This document shows positions 2,544 to 47,626 of a stretch of DNA of 64,000 nucleotides, one piece after another; position 1 is the stretch's first letter, and every line of letters begins with the position of its first letter. The notes under the pieces are model-generated. The model did no database searches, was not told the DNA's origin, and worked only from the letters and a program-made list of their open reading frames with translations. Source of the stretch: Selaginella moellendorffii. Taxonomy: Eukaryota; Plantae; Lycopodiophyta. A program made the translations under genes and the position numbers. The stretch lies in contig NW_003314443.1 in the NCBI RefSeq assembly GCF_000143415.4, positions 65,268 to 129,267 of the forward strand. Direction: 5' to 3'.

Positions 2544-5500
2544 ATGGCCTTCAGGGTTGGGGAAAAGGTTTACATTTTGAATGGTGGGAAGAGAGTTGCA
2601 AAAGGGACCCTTGTGTCTATGGATCGGAACTTTGTTATACACTGTCAAAGGCTTGGGGAAGGCAATGCTGCTGTATCAGTAGAGACTGTCTTCGATAGGA
2701 ATGTGGTCGCTATTGAACGAGGAGAGATGGTCGTCGGGGTAAATGTTGTTGTTGCCTTGAAAAATCTTCAAAAGAAAGCAGATGTTGGGGACAGCGCAAG
2801 TGCGACGCATGTTCCCTCCATGGATCTTAAGAACCGTGCTACATGGATTTAGGCAAAAGTGTTTCTAAACAACCCCGAGGGGGAGGTGGTAGCTGAGGGC
2901 TTAGCCACAGTTGTCGATCCAAGAGATGCGGTTGCTAATCAAGAATTGGGCTGGGATGATATTGGAGTTGCGATTTTAGAGGTTGTTGACACAGAAGAAA
3001 ACAGTCTGACTATTGGAAGCATTGTGCGGTGGAAATTGAGGCACTTAGTGTTTGAGAATGTGAAGGATTCACAATCAAACACCACTACAACTGATGACAG
3101 AACATCTCTTCATGGGAAAAGAAAGTACACCTTCCTAAAGCGCAGCCAAAGGGATCTGAGCAACGAACCGAAAAGGCAGAAAATGGCGATGGAGGTTCGA
3201 ATGGTCTCGACAGTTGCTTGTTGCAAGAGGAGGTGCTGTCAACATGCTGATTGGGATGCTATTGAAGAGGAGAGAGCAAGATACAAGACATTGTCCTGGA
3301 AGGCAGCTCGCAATTTTGTGTATGAGGCATTACGGTCATCTGTTGATGCTTCAGAACATCAGGTGGGGGGCATGGTCTTCCAGAGGGGTTTGGTCTGCAT
3401 GAAGGCATGGAGAATCATTTATGGAGTCCCTCGAACCACATTCTACAGAATCAAAACTGAGTTCGAGGAACAAAGGGTTCAACAGGCAGTCCATAGGAAC
3501 GACGGTACGCACAAAACCAGGGGTCATGTTGTATATGGAGAGGCAATCTTCAAGAGGTTTGTCGAGACATGTAGCGAGCAGCAACCACATAAAACCCGCC
3601 TCTTGGAAGATGGAACACGAGACACCCAACGAGTTCTCCCTTCCATGTATACCAAGGGGGCCATATTGGAAGATGTGAATCGGGAACTCCAGAGTAATGG
3701 CTACAGGAAGCTGAGCCAATCTAGATTTAGTAGATTGTGGACCAACAGGTTCAGGGATGTGAGTATAGGAAAGTACTCCAGCTTTTCAAAGTGTGACGAG
3801 TGCACTGCTATCAAAATGGCTTTGTCGAAGAATTCTTGCAGCGCTCAAGAGCGAGAGACATTGGTTAGAAGGCGGCTCGACCACAACATCGAGCAGAGAA
3901 GCTGCAGGACTGCATATTATCATAACAGGATTCTCTCCATGGAGAGACCTGACTCTTACCTCTGCATCATCCACGACAAAATGGACCAGAAAAAGACGTG
4001 CTTACCTCGACTCAATCCTGCCCCCAAGGCAATCTCTTCATCCATGCAGCTGCCTGTGTCTCTGTTTGGCATAATCGCTCATGGGCATGGTGCCCAGAAC
4101 TATGGGAACTTCTTTGTACCTCTATGGGGTGGCGGGGGTGCAAACATGATGATTGCGTCCCTAGCAAAACACTTAAGGTCTCTGCAAAGTGCGCAAACTG
4201 AGCTGAACGGCCAACCCTTGCATAAGGCCCTTGTCGATCGAACCCCATACAGGGTTCAGCTGGAGGAGGAGCAAAGGCTTGCAGTATCGCATGGGGCCCC
4301 ATGCCATCCCAGTGAATATGTTGGCCGTCAGATTGTAGGGTTATCACGTGAGGCCTCATGCCATTCCGACGAGGCTGGTCGCCCGGTGAATGCACAGCCT
4401 CATCCAAACGAAGCAGAATCTCAAGGAAGTTCTTGCGGCCGATGTGGCCTTCCACCCCATCTTCTGCTCCAAACAAACAATGCTGGCAGTGAGAACAAAA
4501 ACATGTACGTCTTCGCGTACTTGGCGATGCTTGTTGCCAAAGGCATATTTGAAACGGTTACACTTGGCTTTCTCATGGTTGGGCACACTCATGAAGACGT
4601 CGATGCCATGTTCAGTCACCTGGCAGAGTCCCTCCGGCGATCCAATGTCCTCACCCTCCCACAACTCTACGATGAATTCCAAAATTGCATCAAAGGCACT
4701 GTTGAAGCTGCACTTCTGACAGAGGTTCCAGACTTTAAGGGGTTTGTAAGAGGCTACATCAGGGACGGATCCGAAACGCTGATTGGCCACTCCAAGCCTC
4801 TTCAGTTTCATTTCAGCATGTGTGACGGTGCTCCAGTGATGAGGTACAAGATGAGAGAATGGGACACAGTGTGGCTGCCAGTGGACGGCATTGAACTCTT
4901 CAAGAGAGATCCCATAACTGGGGAACCTATGATTCCTCAGGGTTCCCCACTGCCGATGCACCCGGATGGACTCAAAGACCAGGAAAGTATAGTGGCCGGG
5001 ATTAGACAGCATATTGCCTTCTGGAAGAGGGGGTTGGTGTTTGGTGGAGAATCCTATTTTCAGAGGTGCAAGCCTTTGCTCGAATACTGGGAGAAGATTA
5101 TATCTGCTATCCAAAATGGGCCGGTTGTATATGAAGAATTGGAAGAGTCCTTTTGGCCAGAACCCAGAGCACCAGATAGTAGCGGAACAATGTCCTCTGG
5201 AAATGCAGTGACAGATAACGATGTTGAGGATCACTATTGTGGGCCGAGGAACAAGAAGCCGGATTCAGCATTCAATCCAGTACAGGTCTGCAAAGGAATG
5301 GTCGTGCTTGTCAGACCCAGTAATAAAAAACAAATGATATAGGTGGGGCGCTGCATCACTGATGCAAAGGAGGACGCGGAAACTAACTCCTTCAATGTAA
5401 CTGTAGAGTGGTTCAAGCCAAGTTCCGGATATACGAACGATTGCCTAGAAAAGAGATGGGTGCTGAATCCAAGGGATCCCAGCATGAGCATATCGGTGGA

Positions 5501-9079: not shown

Positions 9080-10164
9080 TGTAAGCTACAAATTTTTCCT
9101 TTCCAATTTGCCAGCTTACCTCGTCTACCTGACCAACACTGCCTTGGCTTTAGCTAAGTTCCCTTGTCAAGGTTCCTGCCTATGGTACCAGCTACTTGGT
9201 CCTATTTGGTTTTAGCTACTCACTGCACGAGCAATAGAGTGTTAGCCATCCATCTACGGATTCCCAAATCTCTCATAATCCTCCTCCCCGGGTTAAACTG
9301 GACTTAAGGGTTCGGCTACACTCCCCGCAGGCACAAGCAGCCAAGCACACCAAACCTCCAAGTTCCTAACATCCCTTGGTACCATAAGACTTGATCATGG
9401 GACCCTCTAAATCCCAAATCTTGGGTGCAACACATGCTTCGGGACACTGGGGTGAAACACCATAGCCTAACGGCCTGATATGGGTACCTCTACCCCCCCA
9501 TTTCCATCCCGAAGGGAAGGCCCAAGCCCCTAGGAAAGGTGAGGACCAATGAGCCACAAGGTACTCAAGTGGGGCACCACTCCACCTGAGCTGGGAGCAC
9601 CGCAATCGGTTTCCCTTTCGGGAGTGGGAGTTACTCTTGAGCACTTCCTTGGGTGGCCCCTCCAGCACCACCCAAGTCCATGTTCACTCCCACCCAAGGC
9701 CCCTCAGCCTCAGTTTCAACCTCAAGTCAGTTTGGAAGCACCACTGGAGAGTTCTTTCAAGACTGGTTCCTAGACCTCACTATCCCTACTATACTTTTGG
9801 AACCCCCGTAGCCCCCCCCCCCCCCGAAGACGCATGCTTTGGGCTTTCACCCTTTGACCTGTATTAGTACTCGGACTCAGTCTCAGACTCGATCTCGGAC
9901 TTGATCTCAGACCTGATTTTGGACTTGGTCTCGGACTCGATCTCGGACTCGGTCTCGGACCCAATCTTGGATCTCGGACTCTGTTTCGAACTTGGTCTCC
10001 GAGTTGGCCTCGGACTTGTTCTCGGACTCTATCTTGAACTCGGTCTCAGAGTTGATCTTGGACTCGATCTCAGACTCGGTCCCATCCGATGAACTCTTTG
10101 TCATTTCGGTCATACTTTCGGGGATCCTTTAGCCTACGACACCTTAGGGAGTTGGTTCCTTACA
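9080..10164 (-). mobile_element. 3' LTR of gypsy chromovirus (element A)
   Basis: Terminal inverted repeat TGTAAG...CTTACA; PPT (minus strand GGGTGGTGAAGT) at 10165-10176; internal ctcggact satellite at 9868-10085. Confidence 0.85.
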
Positions 10165-10938
10165 ACTTCACCACCCATAGAAGAAGTTCGATGCCTACAT
10201 CAAACATCTTTTTTTATCCTACAACTTGTTGACCATGTCTCCGGGGGCATCCCCCCACTTAGCGGTGTGCCTAAGTTAGCCTCCCTGGCCAAGAGCCCAT
10301 GACAACGGAATATAGGTGTCCCTATACCCCTCACCTCACCACACCCTAGTATGGGGTCAGGACTTGAACTCAGTCTTGCTTTACTAGGGGGTTGGGACTT
10401 GAACCCTAGAATATGTCTATGGATTCGACATCCCCGTGGGGAGTCGGGCATAGTTCCCTACGCCTGGTTGACCTAGCTAACCCAAGCTAATTAGTTTACC
10501 TTCGGCGCGCCTTCGGGTCTAACATGTGCCATTGCTCAATTTCACAAAGTGATACTTTAATTGAACTTTGCATAAGTACACAGAGTTCTGCCATGCAAAA
10601 ATACCTCCACTAAATCTCGTGCGTTCGCTAGGTTCTCCTCCGGTTCCTATGTTGCTTTGCAGTGTGGAAATCCTTTCCACTTCAAATGGAACTCTCTTAC
10701 CTTGCGTCCTTATCGCTTGCTTTTGTGCGCATTGAGGATAGCCTCGACTTCGTATTCCTCTTCCCTTTGGATAACCTCAAGTAAGGGTTTTACTTGGTCC
10801 GTGCGAAGTGGATCCTCAAAGTACAGCTTGAGTAAGTTCACGTGGAACACTGGGTGCACCTTCCCCATCTCTTGAGGAAGTCGAAGACAGTAAGCCACTT
10901 TACCGATTCGTGCCTCAATCTCGTAAGGCCCCGTGAAC

Positions 10939-10990
10939 CTACTTAAGGAACTCAAGATCAATTCATTTATAAGAATACATGCATTTTTAC
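10939..10990 (-). other. 52-nt GT-AG intron in integrase (second copy at 11845-11896)
   Basis: CAAAG|GTAAAA...TAAGTAG|GTTC; removal restores KLTQR-FTGPY. Confidence 0.85.
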
Positions 10991-11408
10991 CTTTGGGTCA
11001 ACTTTCGGCTAATCCCACTTAGTAGCCTAAGGTTCTTGGTGTTCAGCCACACGTTCTCCCTAGCTTGGAACTCTACATCCCGGCGCTTTTGGTTCGTGTA
11101 CTTGGTTTGCCTTTGTTGAGCCTGTTCCACGAAATCCCTCACTAGATTCCAAATGTTGAGTCTTTCCGCTGTGAATGCCTCCACTGCAGGTAACTCTCCA
11201 TGATACTCGGCCATGCCGAGTTTCACATGACCTTCAATAGCTCGCCCATTGATGACTTCCCATGGACTCACCCCGATACTCAAATGTGGTGAGTTGTTAT
11301 TACACATTTCCGCAAGTCCCAAATGACTTACCCAATCGGTCTAGTCTCTCGAGACATAGCATCGCAAATAATCCTCCAGCTGCCTATTCACCTTTTCCGT
11401 TTATCCGT

Positions 11409-11455
11409 CTATCAAGAAGTGTTAGTGCTATCAAACTTGACTTAATACCCAATAC
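11409..11455 (-). other. 47-nt GT-AG intron in the integrase catalytic core (second copy at 12315-12361, donor mutated to AT)
   Basis: GTATTG...CACTAAC...TTGATAG; removal restores the reading frame across the HPQT-DGQTE motif. Confidence 0.85.
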
Positions 11456-13370
11456 TTGTTTGTGGGTGATAGGCTATGCTAAATTTCAACTTGGTGCGAT
11501 ATTGTTCCAGAAGAGTTCTCCAGAACCTCCTGGTGAAGATCTTATCTCGATTTGAGATAATCTCTTCTGGCCTTCCCCGCACTTGAACCACTTGTTTGAA
11601 GAATAGCTTGCGTCCTTGTCGCTTGCTTTTGCGCGCATTGAGGATGGCTTCGACTTTGTATTCCTCTTCCCTTTGGATAACCTCAAGTAAGGGTTTTACT
11701 TGGTCCGTGCGAAGCGGATCCTCAAAGTACGACTTGAGTAAGTTCATGTGGAACACTGGATGCATCTTCCCCATCTCTTGAGGAAGTCGAAGACAGTAAG
11801 CCACTTTACTGATTTGTGCCTCAATCTCGTAAAGCCCCGCGAACCTACTTAAGGAACTCAAGATCAATTCATTTATAAGAATAAATGCATTTTTACCTTT
11901 GGGTCAACTTTCGGCCAATTCCACTTGGTAGCCTGAGGTTCTTGGTATTCAGCCACACCTTCTCCCCAGCTTGGAACTCCACATCCCAGCGCTTCTAGTT
12001 CGCATACTTGGTTTGCCTTTATTGAGCCCATTCCAAGGAATCCCTCACTAGATTCCAAATGTTGAGTCTTTCCGCTGTGAATGCCTCCACTGCGGGTAAC
12101 TTTCCATGATACTCGGCCATGCCGAGTTCCACAGGACCTTCAATAGCTTGCCCATTGATAACTTCCCATGGACTCACCCCAATACTTGAGTGTGGGGAGT
12201 TGTTATAGCACATTTCCGCAAGCCCCAAATGACTTACCCAATTGGTTAGGTCTCTCGATACATAGCATCGCAAATAATCCTCCAGCTGCCTATTCACCTT
12301 TTCCGTTTGTCCATCTATCAAGAAGTGTTAGTGCCATTCAACTTGACTCAATACCCAATATCTGTTTGTGGGTGATAGGCTGTGTTGAATTTCAACTTGG
12401 TGTGATATTGCTCCAGGAGAGTTCTCCAGAACCTGCTGGTGAAGATCTTATCTCGATCTGAGATGATCTCCTTTGGCCTTCCCCGCACTTGAACCACTTG
12501 TTTGAAGAACAGCTTCGCCACACCTTCCGCATCCACCTCCGTTGTGGTGGGTATGAAATGTGCCATTTTCGAAAATCGGTCCACCACCACGAATATCACA
12601 TCAAACCCCTCACTTGGGGGAAGTCCCATGATGAAGTCCATCGTAAGACATTTTCACAAATGATCTGGAATTGGGATGCTTTGTAACAAGCCCCCACTAG
12701 CCTTAGTCACGGCTTTGACCTGCTGACATGTTGGGCATGTCTTTATATAGTCTTGGATGTCGTTAGCCATATTTAGCTAGTGGTACTTCCTTTTGAGTAA
12801 ACCCATCGCTTTGGGCACTCCGCCGTGTCCCGCAAGAGGTCCTTTATGACACTCTTCTAAAGCTACCTTCCTTAGTTCCCCTTCTAGAACATACACCCTC
12901 GTTTGCTTGGAATAGATGAGTCCGTTGTGTTCTGCATAGCCCGTTTTTTTTTCCGTTGGTAGCTCACCTCTCTGGTGAGCTTCCCGTGCCTCTAGACTCC
13001 TCAGCAACACTTCTTGTGCTAAACCATCATTCTCGTATGCGGTCTGCATATCATCCTAAAAGGTTGCTGTCGCGCTGGATATCGCCAACTTCAAGCTTGC
13101 TTTTCGACTTAGCACATCTGCCATGATGTTGCTCTTCCCAGGCTTGTACAGAATCTCGCAATCAAACTCGGCCAAAGCATTGGCCCACTGACCCTGTTTC
13201 CCTCTCAGGTCGGGTTGTGACAAGAAGTGTTTTGTTGCCACATTGTCCGTGTAAACCTTGGAGTGTCTCCTAAGGTAGTGTCGCCACTCCTTAAGTGCCT
13301 TGACCACCACAAACAATTCCTTCTCATGGGCAGGCCACTTCTATTGAGCCTTGTCCAACTTCTTTGAGAA

Positions 13371-13644
13371 GACCATTGAATGTACACAAGTTAAGAGCAT
13401 TCTTGGGGCTATGCAACTACTATCGAAAGTTTATCAAACACTATTCGAGAGTAGCCCTACCCTTAATGAACCAAACGAGAAAAGGGAAGATGGTATGGAC
13501 AATGGAATGCGAGGTGGCATTTGTCCACCTCAAAGGGAAGTTGAGGAAGGCTCCCCTGTTGGCATTACCAGATTTTGGTAAGGACTTTGAGGTAGAAACA
13601 GACGTTGGGTGCAGTTTTGAAGCAAGATAACCATCCAGGATTGG
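13371..13644 (+). other. Inverted segment of the RT/RNase H connection within element A
   Basis: PLNVHKLRAFLGLCNYYRKFI...APLLALPDFGKDFEVETD...LGAVLKQDNHP reads on + while the flanking pol reads on -. Confidence 0.9.
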
Positions 13645-16347
13645 TCACTCCCAATCCTGGATCGCGTGGACCTTCTCATGGTCCACCTTGAGCCCGTCCT
13701 TGCCCACCACATGCTCGAGAAACTTTACCTCTTGTTAAGCAAAGTCACATTTGCTCTCTTTAGCATACAACTGGTGTTCCCTTAGTTTCTCAAACACCTT
13801 CGTCAAGTGTTTGGTATGCTCCTCTAGCGTTTCGCTATAGATCAGGATGTCATCAATATAAACAACCACAAAATGATCCAGATAGAGTACAAAGATGTGG
13901 TTCATCAACGCCGAAATCGTTGCTGGTGCATTGCATAGTCTGAAGGGCATCACCAGAAACTCAAAGCTCTCATACCTTGTTCGACAGGTTGTCTTCTCGA
14001 CATCTTCCTCTGCTACCCTTATCTAGTAGTATCCTAACCTTAGGTCAATCCTCGAGAAGTATTTTGCCTTTCCCAACCTATTGAACAAATCCTTAATCTT
14101 TGGCAAAGGGTATTTGTTCTTCTTTGTATACTTATTGAGCAACCGGTAGTCTATGCATATGTGCATAGATCTATCTTTCTTTTTCACAAATAACATCGGC
14201 GCCCCATATGGCGACTTGCTCAACCTAACATACCCTTTGTCCACCAACTCCTATAGTTGGCACTTGAGCTCCTCGAGTTCCTTTTTGTTCAAATGATAGG
14301 GGGGACGAACCACCATCTCAGCACCCTCGACCAGCTCAATCTTATGTTCTATCGGTCGTGCGGGGGGCAACCCCACTAGTAGCTCCTCCGGCATGGTATC
14401 CTGGAATTGGTCCAACACCCACTGGATCACTAAAGGTACTTCTTCCATTCCTGTCTTTTTGTCACTCTTCACCGAGAGTAAGCACAAAAATGTTGCCTTA
14501 GTTCCTTTAGTGAGTTGTCCCCTTGTGGAAACCAAGTTTAGGTAGGAATCTTTGGCCTTGCATTGCCCTACCTTTAGATCCTAGGCCTCCATCCTGGATT
14601 TTCTTCCTTGGGCATTTACTAGTACCACAAGGTTCCTACCTTGTCCATGCAAGGTTACCACGAACCGATTTAACCAATCCATCCCGAAGATTACGTCAAA
14701 TCTAGCCATGTCCAACATGGTGAAATCCATGTCTATTTTCCATGTCCTTACTTTGACTCTCGCTTGTCAAAGTACCTCATCGGTGCTTTGGCTACCTTGA
14801 ACAAACTCTATAGTCCTTCGTTCGCCCAGCCGCTGCACCGTTAGTCTAGCTTGCCAGACTATGTCTACAGCCACAAAATTGTCCGAAGCACCCATGTCAA
14901 TAAGGATCTTAACAAAGCTACCTCTGAGCTTCCCTCGGAGGGCTAGTAGATGCCGCGAATGACTCTCTACCAAAGTTGCTCGTGTAATGAATAACTTTGA
15001 GTTAGGGACTGAATCACATACCTCAATTTGGATTTCACCCAACTTAATGGCTATATTTGCTCTGGCCTTCTTCAGGTAGGGATATTCCCTCGAGAAGTGT
15101 CCCGCTTCACCGCAGTTGTAGCATACGTTGTTTCCCACGCTGCTAACTGACTTGCCCTTCTTATCCGTGGGTTTGTCTTTTTTTGCTTGACTCCCCCATG
15201 TACTCGCTCGCTGACCACCGGATCTACCTTTCTAAAACCCCAAGGACTCATTCTTAGAGAAACTCTTCTTGAATTTCCCTTTGTTATATGTTCCCCTTAG
15301 TTTCGCCCCTTTGCTAAACATGGATCCATATCCCCCATATCTGTGACCAGTATCCTCTTTGCCACAAACCCATTCACATACTCTTGAATGGTTCCGGTCT
15401 GCTTTAACCTACTCAGCTCATCCCTTAGGTGCAGAGTAGCATTTGGACAAACGTATATCACGCGGATCCTCGCCTTCATCATTTCCCAAGTTGCCACCAG
15501 TCCTTTGTTGGCCTTTGTCATTCTCCACCAAGACTTGGCATTATCTGTCAAGTATGGTTTTGCACATAGGACCTTCTCCGAGCTCGGTAACCGCAATGCT
15601 CGGAAGTAGTCCTCGATATCGTAAAACCAATCCTCCACCACCTTATAGTCATTCACTCCCTTGAAGACCGGTGGGGGCTTTGGTTTGTACTTCAGAACTG
15701 CTTGAGGGACTGATTCCACTTTGGTCTATTCGACCTTGTTTGGTTTTACCTCAGTCCTTACCGACAGGTCTGCACCTTTTGCACTGCCAGCATCGACAGT
15801 CTTTCGCTTTTTCTTCCGCTTCTCATCACGCTTTAGCTTGCGTACAAGAGTCTCTAGCAGGGCATTGGTCTGTGCCAATTGTCCTTCTAGAACATTCAAA
15901 TTTTTCCAATCTACTTTAGTCACTTAACCACACTTCCAACCGCTTGGAGGAGTCTTATTCACAACCTCCATAAGTCCAATTCAGGACTTTGGACTTGCTA
16001 GCCCCAAGAATGGCATCCATGCCACTCAACATTTGCATCTGGTCCAAGTGCTCCACGTGTCCGATCCCATGACCGACACTCAAAGGTACCACCGACATGG
16101 CAGCCTGTTACGCTAGGGCCATGCCCAATCACCTTTGCCACACTAGTAGTCCAATACCACTTGCATCACAGTCTTGGCTCTCCAAGACTAGGCAAACCAT
16201 CCGTGAGTGGTCATCTCAGATCCACTCCTTAGCATCCTTAGGATGCCCACCGACAAGAGGAATAGCCTTCCCCAATATCCCTCTGTCAGTCCCCACTAAG
16301 TCCCTTTCTGCCCCTGGCCGTGTTTGCCAACACTGCCACTGGATCGA

Positions 16348-16447
16348 NNNNNNNNNNNNNNNNNNNNNNNNNNNNNNNNNNNNNNNNNNNNNNNNNNNNN
16401 NNNNNNNNNNNNNNNNNNNNNNNNNNNNNNNNNNNNNNNNNNNNNNN
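16348..16447. other. Assembly gap (100 N)
   Basis: Run of N; the sister LTR has 50 bp (22471-22520) at this position. Confidence 0.98.
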
Positions 16448-16964
16448 CACACAACTATGTCCTTGGTCACAACCCCAGAGGACTACTCCTCTACCTTTCC
16501 ACAGTCTGGGCCTTTAGGACAACATTTCGGAACACCATGGCCTTACGCGAGCCACCTGGGTACTCTCCCCGCCTTCCGCCCTTGGGTGCTCTAGCCATGG
16601 GCTTAGAGCGAGGTTCCGTTGAGCCACGCCTGGTATCCAAGTAGGTAGTGCCACCCACACTTGGACTGGGAGCATCGGCCAGTCGATCTCCCGGGGGAAC
16701 TAGAGCCGGCTCTTGAACACTTCACCAAGCTACCCCGCTTGTCGGTCCGTGTTCACTCTAGTCTTGGACTTCCCAGTGGTCAGCTCATCACCCAACACTG
16801 GGTCTGGCCTTCCTGGGCCAAACTGGCCTTTCCTGGCTAAACTAGCTCCACTGGGCTCCAACCCCCACACTCTCCTTACTATACTTTTGGAACCCCCCGC
16901 AGCTCCCCCCCCCCCCTGGGGGACGATCGCTTTGGGCTTTCACCCAATTGCCTGTATTAGTATT

Positions 16965-16989
16965 CGGACTCGGACTCGGACTCGGACTT

Positions 16990-17028
<39 letters not shown>

Positions 17029-17670
17029 TCCATCTCGAACTCGGTCTCGGTCTCGGTTCCATCTCGAACTCGGTCTCGGTTCCATCTCAGACTCCACCTC
17101 GGGTCCATCTCGGACTCTATCTCGGGTCCCATCTCGGACTCCATATCGGACTCCATCTCGGACTCCATCTCGGACTCCATCTCGGACTCCATGTCGGACT
17201 CCATGTCGGACTCCACTTCGGGTCCATCTTGGACTCCATTTTGGACTCCATATCGGACTCCACTTCGGGTTCATCTCGGACTCCATTTTGGACTCCATAT
17301 CGGACTCCACTTCGGGTCCATCTCGGACTCCATCTCGGACTCCATATCGGACTCCACTTCGGGTCCATCTCGGACTCCATCTCGGACTCCATATCGGACT
17401 CCACTTCGGGTCCATCTCGGACTCCATATCGGACTCCATCTGGGACTCCACTTCGGACTCCATATCGGACTCCACTTCGGGTCCATCTCGGACTCCATAT
17501 CGGACTCCATCTCGGACTCCACTTCGGACTCCATATCGGACTCCACTTCGGGTCCATCTTGGACTCCACTTCGGACTCCATATCGGACTCCACTTTGGGT
17601 CCATCTCGGACTCCATCTCGGACTCCATCTCGGACTCCATATCGGACTCCACTTCGGGTCCATCTCGGAC
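16965..17670. repeat. 6/12-bp minisatellite (CTCGGT; CTCGGACTCCAT variants) inside the LTR
   Basis: Long array with higher-order variants (…actccacttcgggtccat…); source of the overlapping long ORFs at 16713-17966. Confidence 0.95.
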
Positions 17671-17903
17671 ACTTCCACGTGTCATGTGTTGGTCCTTTTT
17701 GGGTCCCTTTTTGGAGCCTTGCTTATTGCTCGCTTCGTGCTCGCTCCTTGAGCACTTTGTTGGGAGTTCCACTCCCTCTCTCGACCTTCCAAGTCAGAGC
17801 TTTTAGTCCAAACGTGTTACACTCGTTTGGCTTTTGCTTCGGCCACTACCACGTGGCACCCTTTCAGGCTCCACTTTGGGGCCTAGGGATTTTGTATCTC
17901 ACA

Positions 17904-20900
17904 ACTCCACCACCCATAGACGAAGTTCGATGTCCTCATCGAACGGTAAACCATTTTATAAAGTAGCACCCACATGTGTTACCATTTCCATCCTTGGCAC
18001 CTAGCTAATATTAGTCAATGGTTTGACATTGAAGGCTCACCATGCCTTTTCCATATTCGTCAATGGTTTGACACCAAAGGCTCACCATGCCTTGCCCATC
18101 CTCTAAGGAGGGTAGTCTCTCCAACTTAGAAACTGATTGGACCACATGTAGTGGTTCTCTCCTTTTATTGGTTTAGTTCTCGCTAAACCTCTTAGAAACC
18201 CTTCTCTAAGTCAATCCCCACTACTCCTCGAGTAGTCTTAATTTCCATCGATTGAACGTTTGCACTTTGGAACTTTTACTCTTTGACTTCTAGAAGTCAA
18301 TTTCCTAAGTGCCTCCAACACCTTGCATTGCACATATTGTGCAACTCCACTTCCCCATCCTAGGAAGTTCTCTACTTAGGGCACCATCATCCTCTCTTCT
18401 ATTTCGTGCCACCTTGGGCACTAAGTTCCAATTATCATACTTTGCGCTAGGGCTATCCATGGCCCTATCATTTGGCTACCTTACCGCTCCCTCCCTTGGA
18501 ACTTCCCTTTTCGCCAAATCGGAGCAATTCAGAATCCATCCTTGGAAACACACTTCCTTTCCCGCAATTTGTTAGCGTCCAACACATTAGTGTTCCTCGC
18601 CTAACTTTACCACTGGGATTCCTTCCAAGGGATTCCATGGCCCTATCTTGACCACTCATCTTTTGCTCCTATCCATTAATTATTGCACCAAGCAACACCA
18701 AATTTCTACCTCCCTCCTTGAGGTATTCTTTTGATTCCATAGCAAAGGCTCTGCTTTGCCAAGACTAGGGTGTTCACCCCTAGTAAGTCTCTTTAGCATT
18801 TTCTGCTGTGGGCTCTATCCATAGCCCAACTTCGTGACCCTCCCATGGGTCTCTTATAGAAACTACTTTCCTCGGGCACACTATGCCATCGCAATGACAT
18901 AGCTCATCTCCCAAAGGTGTTTTTCCCACTTGGTCACCTTGACCAAGCCACACCATCATCAATAGTTCAAATCAACACTTTGAACTAGGGACCTTATTCC
19001 TTAACCCAAACAAGGACCTTGTCCTTTATTAGCCACAAGATCACCTAGTGATCTCCCCTCGGCACCTTAACAAGTTTGCCAATAGGTACTAGGTCTTCCA
19101 GACCTTTAACTTGTTAACTACGACCCCGGGGGCATCCCCCACGCTTGGCGGTGCGCCCAAGCCAGCCCTTTTGGCTAAGGGTCCATAGCAACTGAGACTG
19201 GGTGTCCCCATCTCATTCACCACGTCCTTGGTGCCACTTGCACCAAGGTGTTCAAGTTAGATATGCTGAGCCACACTAAGCAATCTAACCGTGCATCACG
19301 ACTCCGAGGCATCCCTCGTTTGGCGGTGTGCCCAAACCAGTCTCCACACTGAGAGTCCATGACCACCGAAAAATGAGTGTCCTCATATTCCAAACCATCA
19401 CCACGCCCTAGTGAGTTGGGATTCGAACCCAAGCACTAGAGGGTCGGGACTCAAACCCAACCTCCGTATATGCATCTACGGACAGCATCACCTAGGATGC
19501 CTGGCGTGACTCCCCACGCCGGTGCACCAACTTATACTCAAAGCGCGCTATAGATCACAGCTTAGGAACTTAGTTCCTCCACACTGCCAAGTCCTCTCAC
19601 TTGACAAGTTTGTGATCATGCATGGACTCCTCCATGCTTGGCCCCATGGCCCACCCTTTTTGAAGTTATCACCTTCAACTAGGGTATTTGTTCCCCTCAC
19701 TTGCCAATCTCGCTTTGGCAAGTACTTCGACCACTGTAACATGGTTCCTGCACAAGCGTGAAGCCCTTGATCATCGACTTTCGTTCAAAGCCCTCTCTTT
19801 GAACACTCGGGAATTACTTTCCTAACCTTGATAGCCTTGCCTCATGGCAAGCTTCAAGACCACGCTTCTGCTGCACCACTCTGATTTCGCGCGTTCCTTG
19901 AACCATTTACACTTGGCCTTTCTAGGCACTAAGCTACCTAGAATCATCTTTGGGAACCTTGAAGGAACTCTGTCCCTTAACTTGCTAAGGCCTCCCTTTT
20001 TGCAAGCTTTCCAATTACCATATAGTCTAACATGGACAATTCCATATTTTAGACTCTCCATGGCATCACGGTTGCTAGCGGCAACACCCTTGAGCCCCCA
20101 CTTGATTCTCCACTCCCAGCTGGCATAACCAACTTTGGTTATGCCCTTCGATTCCTATGGTTCGGTTCTATCCCCTTACTTCTTGCTTTTGGCTTCACAC
20201 CTTTCCTTCGGTCATTCTCCTCCAGACTAGGAGGATAGTTTTGCACTTTCTATCATGCCTTAGCAAGTATTCTTAGGGATGAACCTACCCGATAGCCTAG
20301 GGAGTGGTTCCTCAATCAAGGTATGCTCACCCTATAATCCCACACATTGGGATTACGCTGTTGCTTACGGGCCTTTACATGCCCATCACTAGCCTTGCCA
20401 AAATTCCATTTTTGGCTCTGTCCAATTCGAGTAGACAGTCTTCTCCTGTCTCTGCTAACTTTGGACATTTGAATAGCACCATTTCTATCCATCATTCGCT
20501 ACAGACTTAGTCCCTTGGGCCTTATTTATTACCCTCACGACATCAAACAGCACCTCCTGGTATTCTAGAGTGTTCAGGTGTCCCAATGACGGCTTCCTTG
20601 ACAATGAGTATTTCCTTTTATGACATTAACTTACTATATCGCAACATAAACAACTTATCCTCCGTAAGGGTATGTCCAACTTCCCTATGCCATTAAAAAG
20701 ACTTGGGTAGCTACCTTCTAGCTGTTTAACCAATTATTTTGCACCTCTTGCTTAGTTGCCTCATAGTTGTCAAGTCCTACAACTCATTGCTGATGCTTCC
20801 ACACCTCCATCATTATCTAGGTCACCACACTCCAACTGCATGCTCTGCCACTTAGCCTATGCCATTTCCATTTCCATTGGGATTCCTTTGGCAAGGGGTT

Positions 20901-22009
20901 CTCATGAACCCATCAACATAGCCTCAAGGTATTACACCTTGGCCCATTTGGTGTCTCCACACCATTGGCTCCATGAGCCTACCTCTATGACACTTCTTCT
21001 TTGTGTTTAAGTCTTTGCCAAGACCAATACCGCTCTTTCTCATGCCAACCATCTGTTAGCACTGCACCATAGAGGTCACACACAACTTTGTGTCAAAGTT
21101 GTTTTCTTTTTGGGAACACCTTTCCCCTGACTTTAGCATGGCACATTTTGCTATCGATGAGATACCCTCTGTTCTCATCCTTGGATCCTATGATCCCCCC
21201 CCCCCATCCTTCGTGGGGTACAACACACCTCAGTGCAAATGCTTCTATCAATCCTTTTTAGGATCATTCCTTGACTCTACTTGAGTCATCCAGCAGTTTT
21301 GGACTTGGTTAATCCCCAGACCCGTAAGGTCTTACTTGTGAGGCACTAGCTCACCGGAATACACTTCTTGCATTCCTGTCCTACTTCAAAGGACTATTTT
21401 CACAAGTGTTACTCTGACACTTGATTTTGTTCTCTGGGGCAACCTTTGCCCCTTGGGACTACTTGTCCATATGATGAGAATACCAACTCATCTCTAAGTA
21501 CACCCCCCAACTCCTTGGGTTGTTCCAGCATTTATTAAAGGTAGCCCCGGCTACCATTTCAAGGACTTGAGTCCTCTTCCGTATCTGACCTCCCACGGTT
21601 ATTACTTCTGGTCTCACATTCATGAGCACTAACCTCAACTATATGAGGATAATCTTGTGACTCTTTTATTGCTTTGGAGTCTTTATCTTTCCTGTGATCC
21701 TAACTATAGTTGTTTACCACAACTACATTGGCCATTTACTGAGTCAAATGCTCATCTGGATCACATCCTCAACTCTCTGAGGAAAACCATATACTATTCC
21801 CAAGATCCCAAAGTCATTCCTTTACCAGCCCCTTTTCTATCCACCACATCGCCCAAGTTCACGTATGAACTTGAGTGGAGAGCCATGTCCTCTCGACATG
21901 CTACTCCTCAAGGATAGGCCCACTCCTAGGACCTTCCGATGCCAACATCAATGGTGATATACTTGAGCACCAATAAAAGTCAGACTAAGGAACAGCTCCG
22001 ATACCAAAT
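17904..22009 (-). mobile_element. Internal region of element B, degenerate and probably non-autonomous
   Basis: Bounded by PPT (17904-17915) and PBS (21995-22006); no long ORF or recognisable RT. Confidence 0.7.
21995..22006 (-). promoter_or_regulatory. tRNA-iMet-type primer binding site
   Basis: Minus strand TGGTATCGGAGC, 3 nt from the LTR end (…TTACA). Confidence 0.85.
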
Positions 22010-23146
22010 TGTAAGCGACTAAATTTTTCTATTCTACTTTAGTCACTTAACCACACTTCCGACCGCTTGGAGGAGTCTCATTCACAACCTCCATAAGTCC
22101 AATTCAGGACTTTGGACTTGCTAGCCCCAAGAATGGCATCCATGCCACTCAACATTTGCATCTGGTCCAAGTGCTCCACGTGTCCGATCCCATGACCGAC
22201 ACTCAAAGGTACCACCGACATGGCAGCCTGTTACGCTAGGGCCATGCCCAATCACCTTTGCCACACTGGTAGTCCAATACCACTTGCATCACAGTCTTGG
22301 CTCTCCAAGACTAGGCAAACCATCCGTGAGTGGTCATCTCAGATCCACTCCTTAGCATCCTTAGGATGCCCACCGACAAGAGGAATAGCCTTCCCCAATA
22401 TCCCTTTGTCAGTCCCCACTAAGTCCCTTTCTGCCCCTGGCCGTGTTTGCCAACACTGCCACTGGATCGAGGCCCACAGGCCCGACCACTAAGTCCCACG
22501 GTCCTCTAGGACTCCCTCACCACACAACTGTGTCTTTGGTCACAACCCCAGAGGACTACTCCTCTACCTTTCCACAGTCTGGGCCTTTGGGATAACATTT
22601 CGGAACACCGTGGCCTTACGCGAGCCACCTAGGTACTCTCCCCGCCTTCCGCCCTTGGGTGCTCTAGCCATGGGCTTAGAGTGAGGTTCTGTTGAGCCAC
22701 GCCTGGTATCCAAGTAGGTAGTGCCACCCACACTTGGACTGGGAGTATCGGCTAGTTGATCTCCCGGGGGAACTAGAGCCGGCTCTTGAACACTTCACCA
22801 AGCTACCCCGCTTGTCGGTCCGTGTTCACTCTAGTCTTGGACTTCCCAGTGGTCAGCTCATCACCCAACACTGGGTCTGGCCTTCCTGGGCCAAACTAGC
22901 CTTTCCTGGCTAAACTAGCTCCACTGGGCTCCAACCCCCACACTCTCCTTACTATACTTTTGGAACCCCCCGTAGCCCCCCCCTGGGGGATGATCGCTTT
23001 GGGCTTTCACCCAACTGCTTGTATTAGTATTCGGACTCGGTCTCGATCCCGGATTCGGATTCGGACTCGGTCTCGGTCTCGGTCTCGGTTCCATCTCGGA
23101 CTCCATCTCGGACTCCACCTCGGGTCCATCTTGGACTCCATCTTGG
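22010..23146 (-). mobile_element. 5' LTR of element B, truncated inside the satellite
   Basis: Starts TGTAAGCG at 22010 and matches 15898-17100; homology stops at ~23146. Confidence 0.85.
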
Positions 23147-23147
23147 T

Positions 23148-28920: not shown

Positions 28921-31724
28921 ATGGAGGCCGGACAAGTCAGCTCTGCGGCAACTCGAAGAGCTCTGGTTCTCACAGGCCATCTCAAAGAGATCGACAAAGG
29001 GTCTTCGTTGGTGGTGCGCCAGCCGTGCCTGGAGTACTCCCCTCCGGAGCTCAATTCAGGTACTTTTTTTTCCTTTGGGTTCTTGAATTTCCTTTTCATG
29101 TTTTGATCTTCCAGGAGAGCCCGCATTTGATATCGAGTTGATGCAGGGATTGCTGGACGGACACGATGCTCAAACCCGCACTTTTATCTTCAATCTCATG
29201 TCTGAGAGCGATTTGTTCGTTTCCAGGAGAGTGGGTCGACGGGTTTTCTTGGGAGCTGATTACAATCAACCCATGGAAGTCCAGAGGGAGCTGACCATGA
29301 AGAGAATTCAGTATTTTCTTGACAGGGGTGTGTTTCGTGGATGGCTTACAGACGATCGGCCACAGTCCGCGCTCCGTATGGCTGCTATGTTCGAGTACAT
29401 CGGCCTGTTTGATCATTCACTGGCAATTAAGCTCGGTGTTCACTTCCACTTGTGGTATGCTCTCAGCATTTCTTTTTAGTTTCATGTGAGCTTGAGATTT
29501 GTGCATAGGGGGGGATCAGTGAAGTACCTTGGTTCCAAGAGGCATCACGATAAGTGGTTGATGCCAACGGAGGAATTCTCTGTCATAGGCTGCTTTGCAA
29601 TGACTGAACTCGGGCATGGAAGCAATGTTCGTAGCTTCTTTTCTCTTTTTTGTTTTCTTTGTGCTTGAGTGGTTTATGATCTTTTCAGGTCCGAGGGATT
29701 GAAACTATAACTGTGTACGATCCATCAACACAGGAGTTTGTTATCAACACTCCATGCGAGTCTGCTCAGAAATACTGGATAGGAGGAGCGGCAATGGTAA
29801 AAAGCATCACTGTTTTTTTATTTTCGGCAACTGACAAATCCTGTGTTTGTTTCCAGCACGCTACTCATACAGTGGTCTTCTCTCAGCTGCATATGAATGG
29901 AAAGAACGAGGGAGTGCACGCATTTATTGCTGAAATAAGGAGTCCGGATGGCCGAATTTGTCCTGGTGTGCGTATTGCCGATTGTGGCCACAAGATCGGA
30001 CTGAACGGGGTGGACAATGGCCGCATCTGGTATTGTTTTTCCAACTTGCAAAGTTTAGAAGATGAACTCAAAACTTTTTGTTTTTGTCCAGGTTTGATAA
30101 TAAACGCGTACCTCGTGAAAACTTGCTCAACTCCGTAGCCGATGTAACACCAGATGGTCGGTACGTGAGTAATATAACAGATGCAGATCAGGTAAGGTTT
30201 TTTGTTCTCTGAGCTGTTACTTTTCTTATCTTCCTGTGATATTATTCAGAGGTTTGGTGCTTTCATGGCTCCTCTAACGTCTGGACGTGTTACCATTGCT
30301 GTCAGTGCTGTTTATCAATCAAAGGTTTGCCACTTGTATACTTTAGCTTCTTTTTTTTCATAGAGCTGATTTAAGGTTGGCCTTGCAACGGCTTTGCGCT
30401 ATGCTCTTTCGAGGCGAGCATTTTCTCTTTCTCCCAATGAACCAGAAGTGTTACTTTTGGACTATCCCAGCCATCAGCACCGTTTGATACCTTTACTGGC
30501 TAAATCGTATGCGTATTGTTTTGCTTCGTAAGTTTTGAACTGACTGATACTTTGCAGATATGCCATGAGTTTTGCTGCCTGTGATTTGAAGCGCATCTAT
30601 TACAACAGAAAACCCGAGCACGCGAAGATTATTCACGTACTTTCAAGTGGTTACAAGGCAATGTTCTCCTGGCACAACCTCAAAACACTGCAGGTAACCC
30701 CAGATGTGTTCGACATGAGCTTGTAATGAATTCCTCTGCTTTAGGAATGTCGTGAAGCCTGTGGCGGACAAGGTTTAAAATCTGAGAACAAAGTCGGGCA
30801 GCTCAAAGCAGAATACGATGTGCAACTGACGTTTGAGGGCGACAACAACGTTTTGATGCAGCAGGTACTGTTGTCGTAAGTTTGCCTTCGAATTACTTTT
30901 CGTTCCTCAGGTCAGTAAAGCGCTGCTTGGAGATTTTTTCACGTCGCAAAAGAAGCAACAGCCTATGAAAGGCCTCGGCTTAGAACATATGAATGAACCA
31001 CCTCCGACAATTGGGACCAATGCCAACGTCAGGGACGTAAAGTTTCAGGTACACCATCATGTCGGTCGTTTTGTTACTGACCTCCGCCTTGCAGCTCGCT
31101 TTGTTTCGGCTTCGTGAAAGAGATCTGCTAGTAAAACTTGCACAGCAAGTGCGTGAACTCGTGTCCAAAGGATCAACCATGGCGAATGCAACGCTTGCGG
31201 TGAGTCTAACCGCGCCGATTGCTACGTTTTTGTAAGCTAACCTTCTTTCGCTTTCAGAGTTATCAATTGGCTGAGGACTTGGGACGTGCCTTCTCTGAGC
31301 GTTCGGTTTTGGAAAGCATTCTAAGCGTAGAAAACTCTCTCGCCCCAAGCCCTGAGAAGGTACCAGTGTTTTCAGAATCTTGCGAAATAACAAGCCATCC
31401 TTTCGAACAGACAATTCTGGGCTTGTTGCGCTCATTATTTGTAGCTACGACAGTGGACGAAGATCCAGTATTTCTCAGGTAAGCGCTTCCTGTTTTATGG
31501 CATTCGCTAAAGCAACGCTACGACGTTGTTCATCCAGGCATTCATACTTGAGCCCGGATCAGGCATTGTCGATACAAAAAGAAGTTGCGAGCTTGTGTCG
31601 CGAGATCCGACCCTTCATTCTCAGCTTGGTGGACGCATTTGGAATCCCAGCACCGTTTCTTGGGCCCATAGCGTTTGATTGGATCGCAGCGAATTCCTGG
31701 GACCTGGAAGAAGCAAGAAGCTAG
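28921..31724 (+). CDS. ACX3: Peroxisomal acyl-CoA oxidase, ACX3-type (multi-exon)
   Basis: PTS2-like RALVLTGHL; GCFAMTELGHGSNVRGIET, AQKYWIGGAA, KIGLNGVDNGRIW, CREACGGQG, TFEGDNNVLMQQV, PIAFDWI. Confidence 0.93.
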
Positions 31725-32631: not shown

Positions 32632-32929
32632 TCCGCGCGTCCTGGCCTAGAGTCGAGATAGCAAAAATATTTTCAGATTGCAGCCAGTCCTAGCTCATTC
32701 TTCCTTCTGGTTTCGATAGCCTCGTTAAAATTCAAATCGTTTGTTTACTTCTTTTGCATGCACATCGTTCAGTGTCCCTTCAGTGTTTCGCAAGGGTGGT
32801 AGGCTCTCAACAGCAGTTAAACCCAACGTTTCTCCGAAATAAGGAAAGTAGAAGAACGTCCCCAATGCTGAAGCAGGGAGGAACAGGGCCTATCTCATTT
32901 TGGAGCTCCACACTTTATTTGCGCGAATT

Positions 32930-33525
32930 CTGCAGGGACGAAGAACTTGTTTCGCGAGTTCATGCTTTTACCAAATACTACAGACAGCAGCATGGGTCAC
33001 ACTACGAGGTACTTCATCTTTCCGTTTTCATGTTTCACGAGGAGAAACTTCACTTTCACTTCGGAGCTGATAAGAATCATCCAATGTCCGGAGAGTTTGA
33101 GTTTCAGGTCTGTTTTGTTACTGATCTGTGGTCCATTTGTTCTGCAAATGGTGAGTCTAATCTCTATACTAGCTAAGTTTTTCTGAGTGAAGTTCCTTTC
33201 TCTATCAGAGTATGAATGAGCTGAGGACTTGGGGGCCGTTCTCTGAGCATTCTCCAATGTCAGAATCTAAACTGATTGTTTGTGAAATAACAAGCCATCT
33301 TTTCGAGCAGACAATTCTCGTCATTTGCAGCTGTGACAGTGGACGAAGATCCAGTTTTTCTCAGCTAAGCGTTTTGGCAAGGTAAAGCTTTCATACTTGC
33401 AGCCTGGTCGACGCAACTGGCATCGTTTCTTGGATCGATAGCGTTTTGATTGGATCGCAGCGAACTCCTCGCAGCTCGCAGGAAGAAGCAAGCGCGAGAG
33501 AGAACTCTTTCTCTCTTAGGCCTAA
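32930..33525 (+). pseudogene. Collapsed remnant copy of the oxygenase 3' exon and ACX3 3' exons
   Basis: gcagggacgaagaacttgtttcgcgag matches 28621; gctgaggacttggg, gacagtggacgaagatccagt and gattggatcgcagcgaa match ACX3 31270-31695. Confidence 0.8.
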
Positions 33526-44145: not shown

Positions 44146-46654
44146 GGTGCTTTTCATAAGAAGTATTCTTAAGCAAGAGCATTTACATTTATAAACAATT
44201 TATAAACAAAGAGGAGCTTGAGGCCCACCAATACTCCTGAAAAGTCCAAACTTATTCATGAGACATATGCAAGGTGGGTTTTATAAGATTTCTGTTGTTT
44301 TGCATGTCTAGAAAAATCTGCTGCAATCAAGCTCAAGAAAGAAACCATTCTCTTCTCGATGGAATGAAACTCTCACTTGCTCCATGCTCTGGCGAGGCCA
44401 TGGCAAACAAAATGGGTGGACTCTTCGTCTCAATCTGACAAGCAGCTGATGCAAAGGCTACTTTTGAGAAACAAAGCGTAAGTATGCTGCAACAAGAACT
44501 AGCAACAGTCGTTTAAGGTATTGTCGTGGAAGATGGCTTGTCTGAGCTCGAGTTTGATTTGATCCAGGCACCCTGGTCCCATCTATTCTTCACTTGGTTG
44601 TCAAAGCTTGGAGGTCCATAGGTTTCGATCCTTTCAAATCCTCGGGGCGCTCCAACTTTTGATGCCTTTTCTTGGCAATAATATATTGCTCTGAAACCGT
44701 GAAAGCTTACTCACCTGCAAAAAAAACTCCAGGGTTGCACCAGACATCCAATAAACCAGGGAAGCTCTCGAGGAAAATCCTAGATTCAACATAAACAAGT
44801 CACACCTCATGGAATTGGTGGTGATCTTGGTGCAACTAGCTAGTTAAGCTTGTCTGCAAACACATGGTTTTGGCATTTGTCTTTCACACTATTGTCCAAT
44901 CTTGTGAAAGCCTTGACCGAGCTTAAACTCAATCAGCTGAGAACAAGCTGTCTCAAAAGTTTCCAAAGAGCAGAAGGCATAATACAAAGGTCACAAACTC
45001 GTCTCATCACAAGTTGCATTGTGGTCACTCCACGCCTTGGATGTTGATGAACTACAGGCCTCCATTTATCTTGGAAAATACATCTATGAGGAATGAAGCA
45101 ATCTGGACAATAGTATAAGCAAAATGAGCACGAGAAGAACCATACATACCGTGGAAAAGCATGAGTTCTACACTCAAAACGACACACACATGGCACGGGC
45201 AATGTTCGATCAAATGCCCGAGTGCCACAACATTGTGGCATGGACTGCTAGGCCTACGCTCTCACTGGGAATTTCTTCCACGCTTTAATTCGATCCTCTA
45301 CCAGGAGATGGTCTTGGAAGGAATGGCTCCCGACTAGATCACATTCACTTCCGAAATCAGAAAAGTTCTTTGTCAGGATGTACCATCTAGTAGGACGAAA
45401 CTGGCCTCAAGAATGCTAGAGCATAAGTTATAACATGTAGCTACGTGGGGCTCCTCGCCAAATGATGAACCTATGCAGAGACTTGCCCGATCGTGGAGCA
45501 CTAGTACACGCAAGGTGGATTGTTAACATTGAGGATGTCATTGTCGTGTGCTCAAGTGGCCTGAAGAACGCCACCGTGATTGGATTCCTTGTGATTCCAT
45601 CACTCTTTTAGCTAATAGAGCTTCTAATTACAATCTTTTACAAGGAACCCACAGTACAAAGACTAAGCTCGGTTACAATCTTTTAAAATGAACCCAGGAC
45701 TAAGCTCAATAATGAAGATTAGGCCATTGTTGGAATGTCCATTTTAAGGAGTTGTGCTCTTATTGGATAGCTCATTGTAACGCTTGAGCTAAATGCTTTT
45801 CAATTAAAACGTACAATAATATGCTTTGCCTCCTGTGGGAACATGCAGTCTATGTTAGGAGATCTCAGCAGGCATGGTGGATCAATGTTCCATCTGGAAC
45901 GGATGAAATTTCTTGCTCAAGGTGCTCGTCTGACCACATTCCACAGCAATATTCTGAAGCTGTACGTGAAGGAGATATTCGATGGGTTGTACAAAGAGAT
46001 CAGGAAGATTCTGGTGCCGTTCATGTGGATGTTGTGCTGCCATTTGAATGGAAATTCGGGGGTTGGTAAATCTGCATTCGTCTGGTACTTCCGGTCATGA
46101 TCTACGAGTCCAGAGCGACTGTTTTGATGTTCAAGGGTAACAAGCTCAGGGTGGTGAATAGAGAAGACTTCCCTCAGGAGATCGTGCTGGACAGCAAAGT
46201 AGATACCATCTCATCGATCTGTGAGTGGACTTGGGGCGGATGGTTGGAAATAAAACCCTTGTTGCTGCTTCATCACCAGACGAGTTCAATGTCAGAAAAG
46301 CCAAGTGGACAACGTTCACTCGCTATCTGCCTGCGTGGGAAAAGCACGAGTACGATGCTCTTGTGTCTTCTTGGAGGAAACGCGTGACAGACTACGAGAG
46401 TGGATCGGAAGAGGCCAAAGAGATAACGCAGAGAGTGAATGCTGCTGAAATGGCGTTTGAATGGTTTGGAGGTATCCCCTGGTTTCTTTGGGATGTAGAA
46501 GCAAATGGTCTGACTGTGGAAGCTTTCGAAAGGGATTGAAGCACCTGAGTATGGTTCTGACTCCTGATTTTGTCCTTCAAGCGTTTTGAGCGTTGGTGGT
46601 CCAGGAAACCAAGGTGCGCATCTTCATGCTCTCAAACATGCTCCTGGCGGCGCT

Positions 46655-47626
46655 TTCCACCCTCTGTTTCTGATCACCTTGTTTATTCCCAGAATTCCTA
46701 TTCTTGTCCGAGTTACCAGCATACGGTTGCTGATATTGTTCCATGAGCGAGTGACTAAAGGCAACTTGCTGTGCTGCCTCCTTACACTCCAGATACGTCT
46801 TTGGCTTAAACTTCAAAATCTCATTGCGAGAAAATGAACTTAAACCCTCTAGAAAATAATTCCGAGCATCTTCGTCACTCATATTTGCAATCATAATGTG
46901 CTTCTGAGCAAACGCATTAACGTAATGCATGAGATCCCCTCGTTGCTTTAACCGCCGCAGCTCCGCACGAAGTCTCAAACCAAGATCATCCGGCAAGTAT
47001 TCCTTATGGATACGAGACCGCATCTTGGTCCAACTTCTAGTCTGCCCCTTTTCAGCACACACCTGGCGCCACCAAGTTTTGGCATGATCGGTGAGAAAGG
47101 ATTGCGCACACGCAACTTTCGTATGATCATCTACGTCTCCCGCTATGAAATAGTTTTCCATATCGTAGACCCAGTCTTCCAAAACCTGATAGCCCCATAT
47201 GCCTCTGAAGTTGGGTGGTTTCGGGGGCTTGAACTTTGAAACTCATGCAACCGGGGGCAGCTGCAGAACTTCATCGTCCTCAGAACTTGAGAAGGAGTTC
47301 GGTTGCTTAGGCTTAGCTGGTTTAGCTGCCTCAGCTTCTTTCTTCCTCTTCTTGTTCTCCTTCTTCAATTTGCGAATCTCCCTTCGCAAATTCTTGATCT
47401 CGACTTCCTGAGCTGTACACTGCAACGCCGTAGCATTTGGCTCTTCCTCTTCCGACTCAACCTCTGCCTTTTCCGCAGCATCTCTAGCAGGAGTTTCCTC
47501 CTCTCGATTCGCCCATCTAGAGGTTTCAGCGTCATCAGCACGGTTCCATTTCACCATCCCGCTAGCTGCATGCATGCCTCTATCAGTAACTGAACATGCA
47601 TACAACGTTCTTACTGAATGGTGCAA
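46655..47626 (-). pseudogene. Gypsy gag, truncated, with an in-frame TGA at 47243-47245
   Basis: EDWVYDMENYF...LTDHAKTWW...LRRLKQRG...FLEGL; homologous to the element A gag. Confidence 0.85.

Follow-up and report, generated by a model that had tools for sequence, protein, structure and literature searches.

The integrase of a high-copy chromovirus family of Selaginella moellendorffii is interrupted by two inserts, of 47 and 52 nucleotides (nt), that break its reading frame and are present family-wide in the DNA. Reverse transcription normally removes introns, and the first proof of retrotransposition rested on intron loss. On balance, we consider it probable that both inserts are true spliceosomal introns that gate the integrase only, with unspliced RNA being replicated and yielding Gag–RT–RNase H and spliced RNA being sorted from the particles. 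The copy described here lies in a 64,000-nt stretch of genomic DNA (the window).

This copy is a decayed Ty3/gypsy element on the minus strand (10557-15900) with gag, a zinc knuckle, protease (PR), RT, RNase H, integrase, an SH3-like domain and a chromodomain, that is, with the chromovirus domain order gag-PR-RT-RNase H-integrase (Table 1). PR and RT form a single frame. The GPY/F motif and the C-terminal chromodomain are both encoded by exon 3 (Pfam Chromo, E 4.4e-10 with two stops read as X; SH3_Tf2-1). The 3' half of the integrase is repeated in an ungapped tandem duplication (833/906 positions identical), each copy of which (A and B) contains both inserts. The 10557-15900 copy itself is dead. 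An inversion of ~270 bp spans its RT/RNase H junction (13373-13640), and opposite-strand joins at 13370-13372 were seen in several contigs of the family. Next to the coding unit, ~5 kb of the minus strand (17000-22006) between two LTRs of the same family has a PBS at its start and no long ORF by eye; it looks like a non-autonomous derivative that has its downstream LTR in common with the coding unit (LTR-internal-LTR-internal-LTR). Arrays of 12-bp units lie directly upstream of each LTR (9846-10093, 16933-17704, and 23006-23147), with ~700 bp of such units at 17081-17704.

Table 1. Features of the chromovirus copy and of the host reference gene, in window coordinates
Feature	Position	Strand	Basis
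Poly-G tract and start of the downstream LTR, truncated, more diverged	9775..9830	-	
Exon 3 copy B: GPY motif, SH3-like domain, chromodomain, stop; ATG 10868 to stop = 309 nt (2012 ORF3: 309 bp)	10557..10938	-	Pfam
Tandem duplication of the integrase 3' half, 906 bp	10698..12509 (10698-11603 + 11604-12509)	-	Window self-comparison
Insert 2 copy B, 52 nt	10939..10990	-	
Integrase exon 2 copy B; contains an ATG-started 318-nt ORF (2012 ORF2: 316 bp)	10991..11408	-	ORF reading
Insert 1 copy B, 47 nt; GTATTG...GATAG	11409..11455	-	
Exon 3 copy A, broken by the tandem junction	11604..11844	-	Pfam SH3_Tf2-1
Insert 2 copy A, 52 nt; AG|GT...AG|GT, with an AGGT repeat flanking it on each side; interrupts the Arg codon ahead of the GPY/F motif, within the SH3-like domain	11845..11896	-	
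Integrase exon 2 copy A, 418 nt: GQTE glutamate, remaining core, start of SH3-like domain	11897..12314	-	Homologue profile, Ty3 mapping
Insert 1 copy A, 47 nt; starts AT, CTAAC branch-like motif, TAG end; splits the Asp codon of HPQT-D-GQTE	12315..12361	-	
Integrase exon 1: H2C2 zinc finger, core with first two catalytic Asp; RNase H upstream, uninterrupted	12362..12940	-	Pfam rve, Integrase_H2C2; 7Q5B residues 1172-1267
Decayed gag, zinc knuckle, protease, RT, RNase H; stops, deletion near 15324, inversion 13373-13640; without intron-like inserts	12941..15897	-	Pfam, homologues
LTR 5' of the coding unit; 12-G tract near start; contains a gap of 100 N; 5' limit uncertain; a deletion has removed the LTR end, the PBS and the start of gag	15898..16945	-	
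Second LTR, same family, end ...TTACA; then tRNA-Met-type PBS motif at 22006	21995..23013	-	
Acyl-CoA oxidase-like gene, ~13 predicted introns of 46-62 nt	28921-31724	+	Exon-chain prediction

The inserts had been described in an earlier note as present in both tandem copies, and their coordinates, lengths and flanks are as given there. Insert 1 carries a branch-like CTAAC 13 nt before the AG, at the place proposed for a branch point; the copy at 11409 has GT after CAA, and the copy at 12315 has AT after CAG. Insert 2 reads AAG|GTAAAA...GTAG|GT in both tandem copies, with a branch-like TTGAT at -19. GT...AG ends were thus found in three of the four insert copies, the exception being insert 1 copy A. 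The chance of finding GT..AG ends in any of the equivalent placements is, roughly, 0.012 and 0.015. The GC content of the inserts is 0.25-0.36, versus 0.46-0.48 in the adjoining exons, and coding windows of equal length are as AT rich as the insert in 0% of cases for insert 2 and 4-7% for insert 1. Each insert shifts the frame and brings a stop in the incoming frame; GC content, frame reading and comparison with predicted host introns agree here with the claim that the inserts are AT rich, of host intron size, frame shifting and stop containing. The stop in insert 1 lies four codons in, ahead of the Glu of GQTE, the third catalytic residue of the integrase. Because the two insert lengths sum to 99 nt, exons 1 and 3 are in a common frame when both inserts are retained. 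When insert 2 alone is retained, a stop is met directly at its donor.

The exons were compared with homologues uninterrupted at this site. Among 150 homologues listed of 632, 83 had an unbroken HP..DG..E-type motif and 67 did not; a profile was made from the 60 of these 83 segments in which GP[YF] followed 120-175 residues on, and the 23 without it were excluded. The H-to-GPY distance calculated from the exon lengths is 146, which is the modal value of the homologues (12/60). When the exons were translated separately and placed in this profile, exon 1 ran to column 114, exon 2 occupied columns 116-251 and exon 3 began at column 254, so that no more than the split codons and a single terminal residue went unplaced. 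Mapping to Ty3 Gag-Pol (7Q5B) put the end of exon 1 at residue 1267 and the start of exon 2 at residue 1269. Both the profile and the Ty3 mapping place insert 1 within the Asp codon, as was to be expected if it split HPQT/DGQTE as claimed, and without the inserts the frame is continuous at conserved residues. Comparison with four long homologues revealed no comparable inserts in PR, RT, RNase H or the integrase N-terminus, in line with the earlier observation on PR, RT and RNase H. The closest protein relative among the 150 listed of 632 was 46% identical. Protein searches for the spliced form of the family protein yielded none (1 distant match among 23 candidates, none near the expected length).

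As a host reference we used the stop-free exon chain of a neighbouring gene (28921-31724), called acyl-CoA oxidase-like from its motifs, with 14 introns predicted without RNA, the last of which is probably wrong and was left out of the donor comparison. Pieces resembling this gene occur again at about 32800-33500. The predicted introns of a CRAL-TRIO gene were excluded, as their ends were out of frame. Predicted host introns in the window were 46-62 nt long (median GC, 0.37), a range that includes both inserts, and the donor hexamers GTATTG (insert 1) and GTAAAA (insert 2) were each present among them. The insert 1 acceptor is weak, scoring 1.1 on a simple score, below 12 to 13 of the 14 predicted host acceptors (13/14 scored at least 2.0, and the other scored 0.1).

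Insert 1 and insert 2 show no relationship to one another (872/1000 shuffles scored as high), which points to two separate gains with splice-type ends in both. A MITE origin finds no counterpart in the data: the inserts have no terminal inverted repeats, no further copy within the window, and no RNA folding beyond that of shuffles (z-scores, -1.4 to 0.8). AGGT repeats flank insert 2 in both tandem copies, and an AGAT repeat flanks insert 1 copy A, a pattern consistent with inserts that were gained at proto-splice sites. The same repeats can be read as 4-bp target duplications of unspliceable filler, spread by trans-mobilisation or by DNA-level duplication, whose resemblance to introns would derive from AG-N-T insertion sites. 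If AGGT is a target duplication, the GT..AG ends of insert 2 are automatic and the chance argument is weaker. However, insert 1 copy B starts with GT, the size, AT content and branch motif are host-like, inverted repeats and other copies are lacking within the window, and RNA coverage has a gap inside insert 1 (see below), so that we regard filler as highly improbable.

An ancestral ACAG|GT at insert 1 had been considered recoverable from the two tandem copies. This state is plausible, but it is not forced, since all three candidate states of the donor require two changes. Among polarised transitions, 25 of 33 were C/G to T/A (from 40 of 760 family variant rows). Favoured by this polarised spectrum only, an AG|GT ancestor is somewhat likelier than the other states, and no single copy in the window carries AG|GT at insert 1.

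We next consider presence of the inserts across the family. In one DNA run (X1), 40,361 contigs, in which rare variants are lost, were placed on 11610-15950 at an identity of at least 80%. Depth within the inserts was 240,367 at 12338 and 405,276 at 11884, and neighbouring exon positions ranged from 144,005 to 730,452. The sole deletion reaching 3 in 100 was of one base, and none matched an insert. The method used lists a skip of 36-51 nt as a joint, and no joint representing an exact skip of either insert was found in the 15 best-supported of 142 joints (depths, 256-479). A multi-copy intronless subfamily is therefore unlikely, as such a class would be expected to head the list. The inserts are thus family-wide in the DNA of this high-copy family. 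Beyond the species, a search of metagenomes for an intron at the same integrase motif gave three matches, all by chance and in unrelated genes; a 21-nt insert pattern was found in 0 viral contigs and 0 prokaryote contigs, and none of the 7 candidates from a locus search of viral contigs was confirmed.

The family is likely SM1-Galahad of S. moellendorffii, matched by description and not by sequence alignment. As far as described by Novikov et al. in 2012 (PMC3350952), SM1-Galahad is a Galadriel-related chromovirus with hundreds of copies, a mean identity of 95% and no intact copy found, whose LTRs (1076/1146 bp) have a poly-G tract, TG..CA ends and a tRNA-Met PBS. The window LTRs have poly-G tracts of 8, 12, and 14 G, a CA end and a PBS, and are about 0.97-1.05 kb long, with an uncertain 5' boundary and an N gap. 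According to the same source, the SM1-Galahad consensus has an ORF1 of 1295 aa ending in core integrase, an ORF2 of 316 bp and an ORF3 of 309 bp with a group I chromodomain (PMC3350952). In the window, the first frame meets its stop four codons into insert 1, and the next two frames measure 318 nt (versus 316 bp) and 309 nt (an exact match). The main text of that paper describes separate ORFs and contains the strings "intron" and "splic" 0 times (PMC3350952). Since the 2012 consensus has the same breaks, it independently supports the view that they are part of the family consensus and that the frames beyond them remained open. Together with the family-wide DNA, these ORF breaks answer the question of whether the inserts are unique to the window copy: they are not. 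The sister family SM2-Galahad is described as having a single intact 4731-bp ORF (1577 aa), LTRs 99.7% identical and hundreds of copies; it has the same domain order and chromodomain type as SM1-Galahad and differs in being, by that description, intronless (PMC3350952). Removal of the inserts predicts an SM1 polyprotein of 1295-4+266 = 1557 aa, compared with 1577 aa in SM2-Galahad.

RNA was assessed in three runs from the same species (~12 in 100 of each, ~4,145 million letters), which contained 9 (X21), 1 (X22), and 0 (X23) element reads. At the listing threshold of 3 reads, no RNA joints were found among these 10 reads. In one strand column of X21, depth was 0.71 in bin 12190-12334 and 0.32 in bin 12335-12479, corresponding to 103 + 46-47 nt (~150). 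Coverage takes in 12223 and 12259 and misses 12196 and 12338. An exact skip of intron 1 (12212-12314 + 12362-12408) fits this pattern, whereas a 150-nt read of unspliced RNA would include 12338 but not 12223. This hints at one X21 read without the middle of insert 1, as deduced from binned depth, with the end of its first block anywhere in 12299-12325; alternatively, the pattern may stem from two partial reads. A further X21 read has the family base at 11884 and either retains intron 2 or represents DNA carry-over; it is the sole informative read there, and no spliced read was seen at intron 2 among the 10 RNA reads. The X22 read is partial, is <90% alike, begins ~24 nt away without reaching the junction and gives no information on splicing. 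With regard to the spliced reads by which the intron claim was to be judged, one of 10 reads may thus speak for it at insert 1, and the read at insert 2 fits retention of that insert.

These data suggest the following route. The host spliceosome would remove both inserts, as indicated by their host-like size and ends and by the one read that fits removal of intron 1. Unspliced RNA would yield Gag-PR-RT-RNase H and a dead integrase half, because the stop in intron 1 precedes the catalytic Glu. Only doubly spliced RNA would encode the whole integrase-chromodomain, on a predicted polyprotein of ~1557 aa, and splicing would thereby set the ratio of Gag/RT to integrase in a single-ORF element. Spliced RNA is likely excluded from particles or from reverse transcription, as in BARE1, because it would keep all internal signals, yet no multi-copy intronless subfamily was found. 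The earlier note had proposed that unspliced RNA is packaged and reverse transcribed and that spliced RNA makes the integrase. As LTR elements are copied through RNA and the inserts are retained family-wide, the unspliced form is likely the reverse-transcribed one, which supports that part of the proposal; packaging and production of integrase from the spliced form remain presumptive. A stricter version, which we put forward tentatively and hold to be rather less probable than not, is that a self-sufficient element fixed both introns as a switch: spliced mRNA, with PBS, PPT and LTR ends intact, would be strictly barred from reverse transcription, splicing alone would set the integrase dose, and retention of intron 2 only would give a core integrase without chromodomain. 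In that case the family would serve as a natural indicator-intron system for telling genome RNA from message.

Retention of the introns could also be explained without RNA sorting, if splicing were rare and the few intronless copies failed to spread owing to excess integrase per Gag or to silencing. The integrase would then still be splice gated, and only the cause of retention would differ. The weak acceptor of intron 1 and the retention of intron 2 in one read, with no spliced read seen there, agree with rare splicing, and single intronless copies could sit outside the best 15 of 142 joints. However, if the intron 1 read is spliced, it is the only informative read at that intron (1/1), so that splicing would not be rare, and the cost of intron loss is an assumption. 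We therefore consider this explanation unlikely.

Alternatively, the family could be non-autonomous for integration, the inserts having killed the integrase of a master copy, with SM2-Galahad supplying integrase in trans and any splicing being incidental. A potential donor exists, as SM2-Galahad is intact (1577-aa ORF, 99.7% LTR identity, hundreds of copies) and SM1 is described as having no intact copy (PMC3350952). The non-coding unit between family LTRs at 17000-22000 suggests that these LTRs are mobilisable in trans. Nor was there a signal of purifying selection between the tandem copies: pN/pS was 0.61, 0.64, and 1.54, and exons 2 and 3 together differed by 21 synonymous and 33 non-synonymous changes (P = 0.28). 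Near-neutral differences are, however, expected between tandem copies that decayed after insertion, so that this comparison does not speak for or against function in the active lineage. Incidental splicing should leave intronless copies, whereas no multi-copy class of these was found in the best 15 of 142 joints. Exons 2 and 3 retain the modal spacing, the Glu, the GPY motif and the chromodomain, two unrelated inserts have splice-type ends, and the published family consensus has both ORF2 and ORF3 open (PMC3350952). Supply in trans thus seems to us unlikely, and introns that gate the integrase, with sorting of the spliced RNA, are the reading that we prefer.

Other repeats and mobile sequences were observed in the window. 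A 3774-nt inverted repeat (39100-42873/53253-57026) is 100% complementary and is a recent duplication or an assembly artefact; more near-identical repeats occur across 36-57 kb. An open frame of 829 codons with DUF7869 (2853-5342, plus strand; E 6.7e-41) is possibly a DNA transposon gene, frames at 48651-49778 (minus strand) resemble a DUF659 transposase (E 1.1e-39), and a second gag at 46577-47242 differs from that of the 10557-15900 element.

Splicing that gates Pol is already known from Ogre, and separate pools of spliced and packaged RNA are known from BARE1; what would be new here is the presence of two host-size introns in the integrase and the gating of integrase alone. In Ogre, genomic copies are likewise reported to retain an intron, whose splicing from some of the transcripts makes downstream Pol domains (RT-RH-INT) translatable, but this is one intron of ~274 bp between ORFs that gates RT, RNase H and integrase together. 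The element in the window is a chromovirus with two putative introns of host-minimal size inside the integrase, one of them within the D,D-35-E core, and its arrangement is not of the Ogre type, as PR and RT are in one frame and a chromodomain is present. In BARE1 of barley, only unspliced RNA is reported to be packaged, from another start site and with R carried by the unspliced pool only, and amplification of spliced DNA copies failed (PMC3735527). BARE1 and EVD/Ty1-copia of Arabidopsis resemble the window element, according to the portions of these studies consulted, in having a single ORF with the protein ratio set by splicing (PMC3735527, PMC5580714). They differ in polarity: there, splicing gives a Gag-only RNA and unspliced RNA encodes all of Pol, whereas in the window element the unspliced RNA would be the truncated message. 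In the part of the Arabidopsis study available, no conserved splicing was seen in Ty3/gypsy elements (PMC5580714). Artificial indicator introns (Ty, L1, ONSEN) are also described as sense-strand introns in such elements, but vanish from new copies (PMC12786077), whereas the window inserts are retained family-wide. The same 2025 review, in its accessible text, gives Ogre and EVADE as the sole notable plant LTR exceptions to intronlessness (PMC12786077). In the open literature, as distinct from subscription papers, Repbase, and large REXdb supplements, no description of introns within the integrase of a chromovirus was found; the name SM1-Galahad was found in a single paper, and the available portions of PMC2864245 and PMC3605345 contain nothing on introns. 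The feature is family-wide and real and was apparently unrecognised before.

If the inserts are introns as proposed, two introns of ~50 nt have been kept through hundreds of insertions, and the spliced and unspliced RNAs, differing by no more than 99 nt within the integrase, would offer an unusually clean test of how genome RNA is chosen for packaging. Splicing within the integrase would join the known ways to set the Gag:Pol ratio. It would also account for the published picture of SM1-Galahad as a family that lacks intact copies and has its chromodomain in a detached ORF, and families of this kind would be missed by intact-ORF screens.
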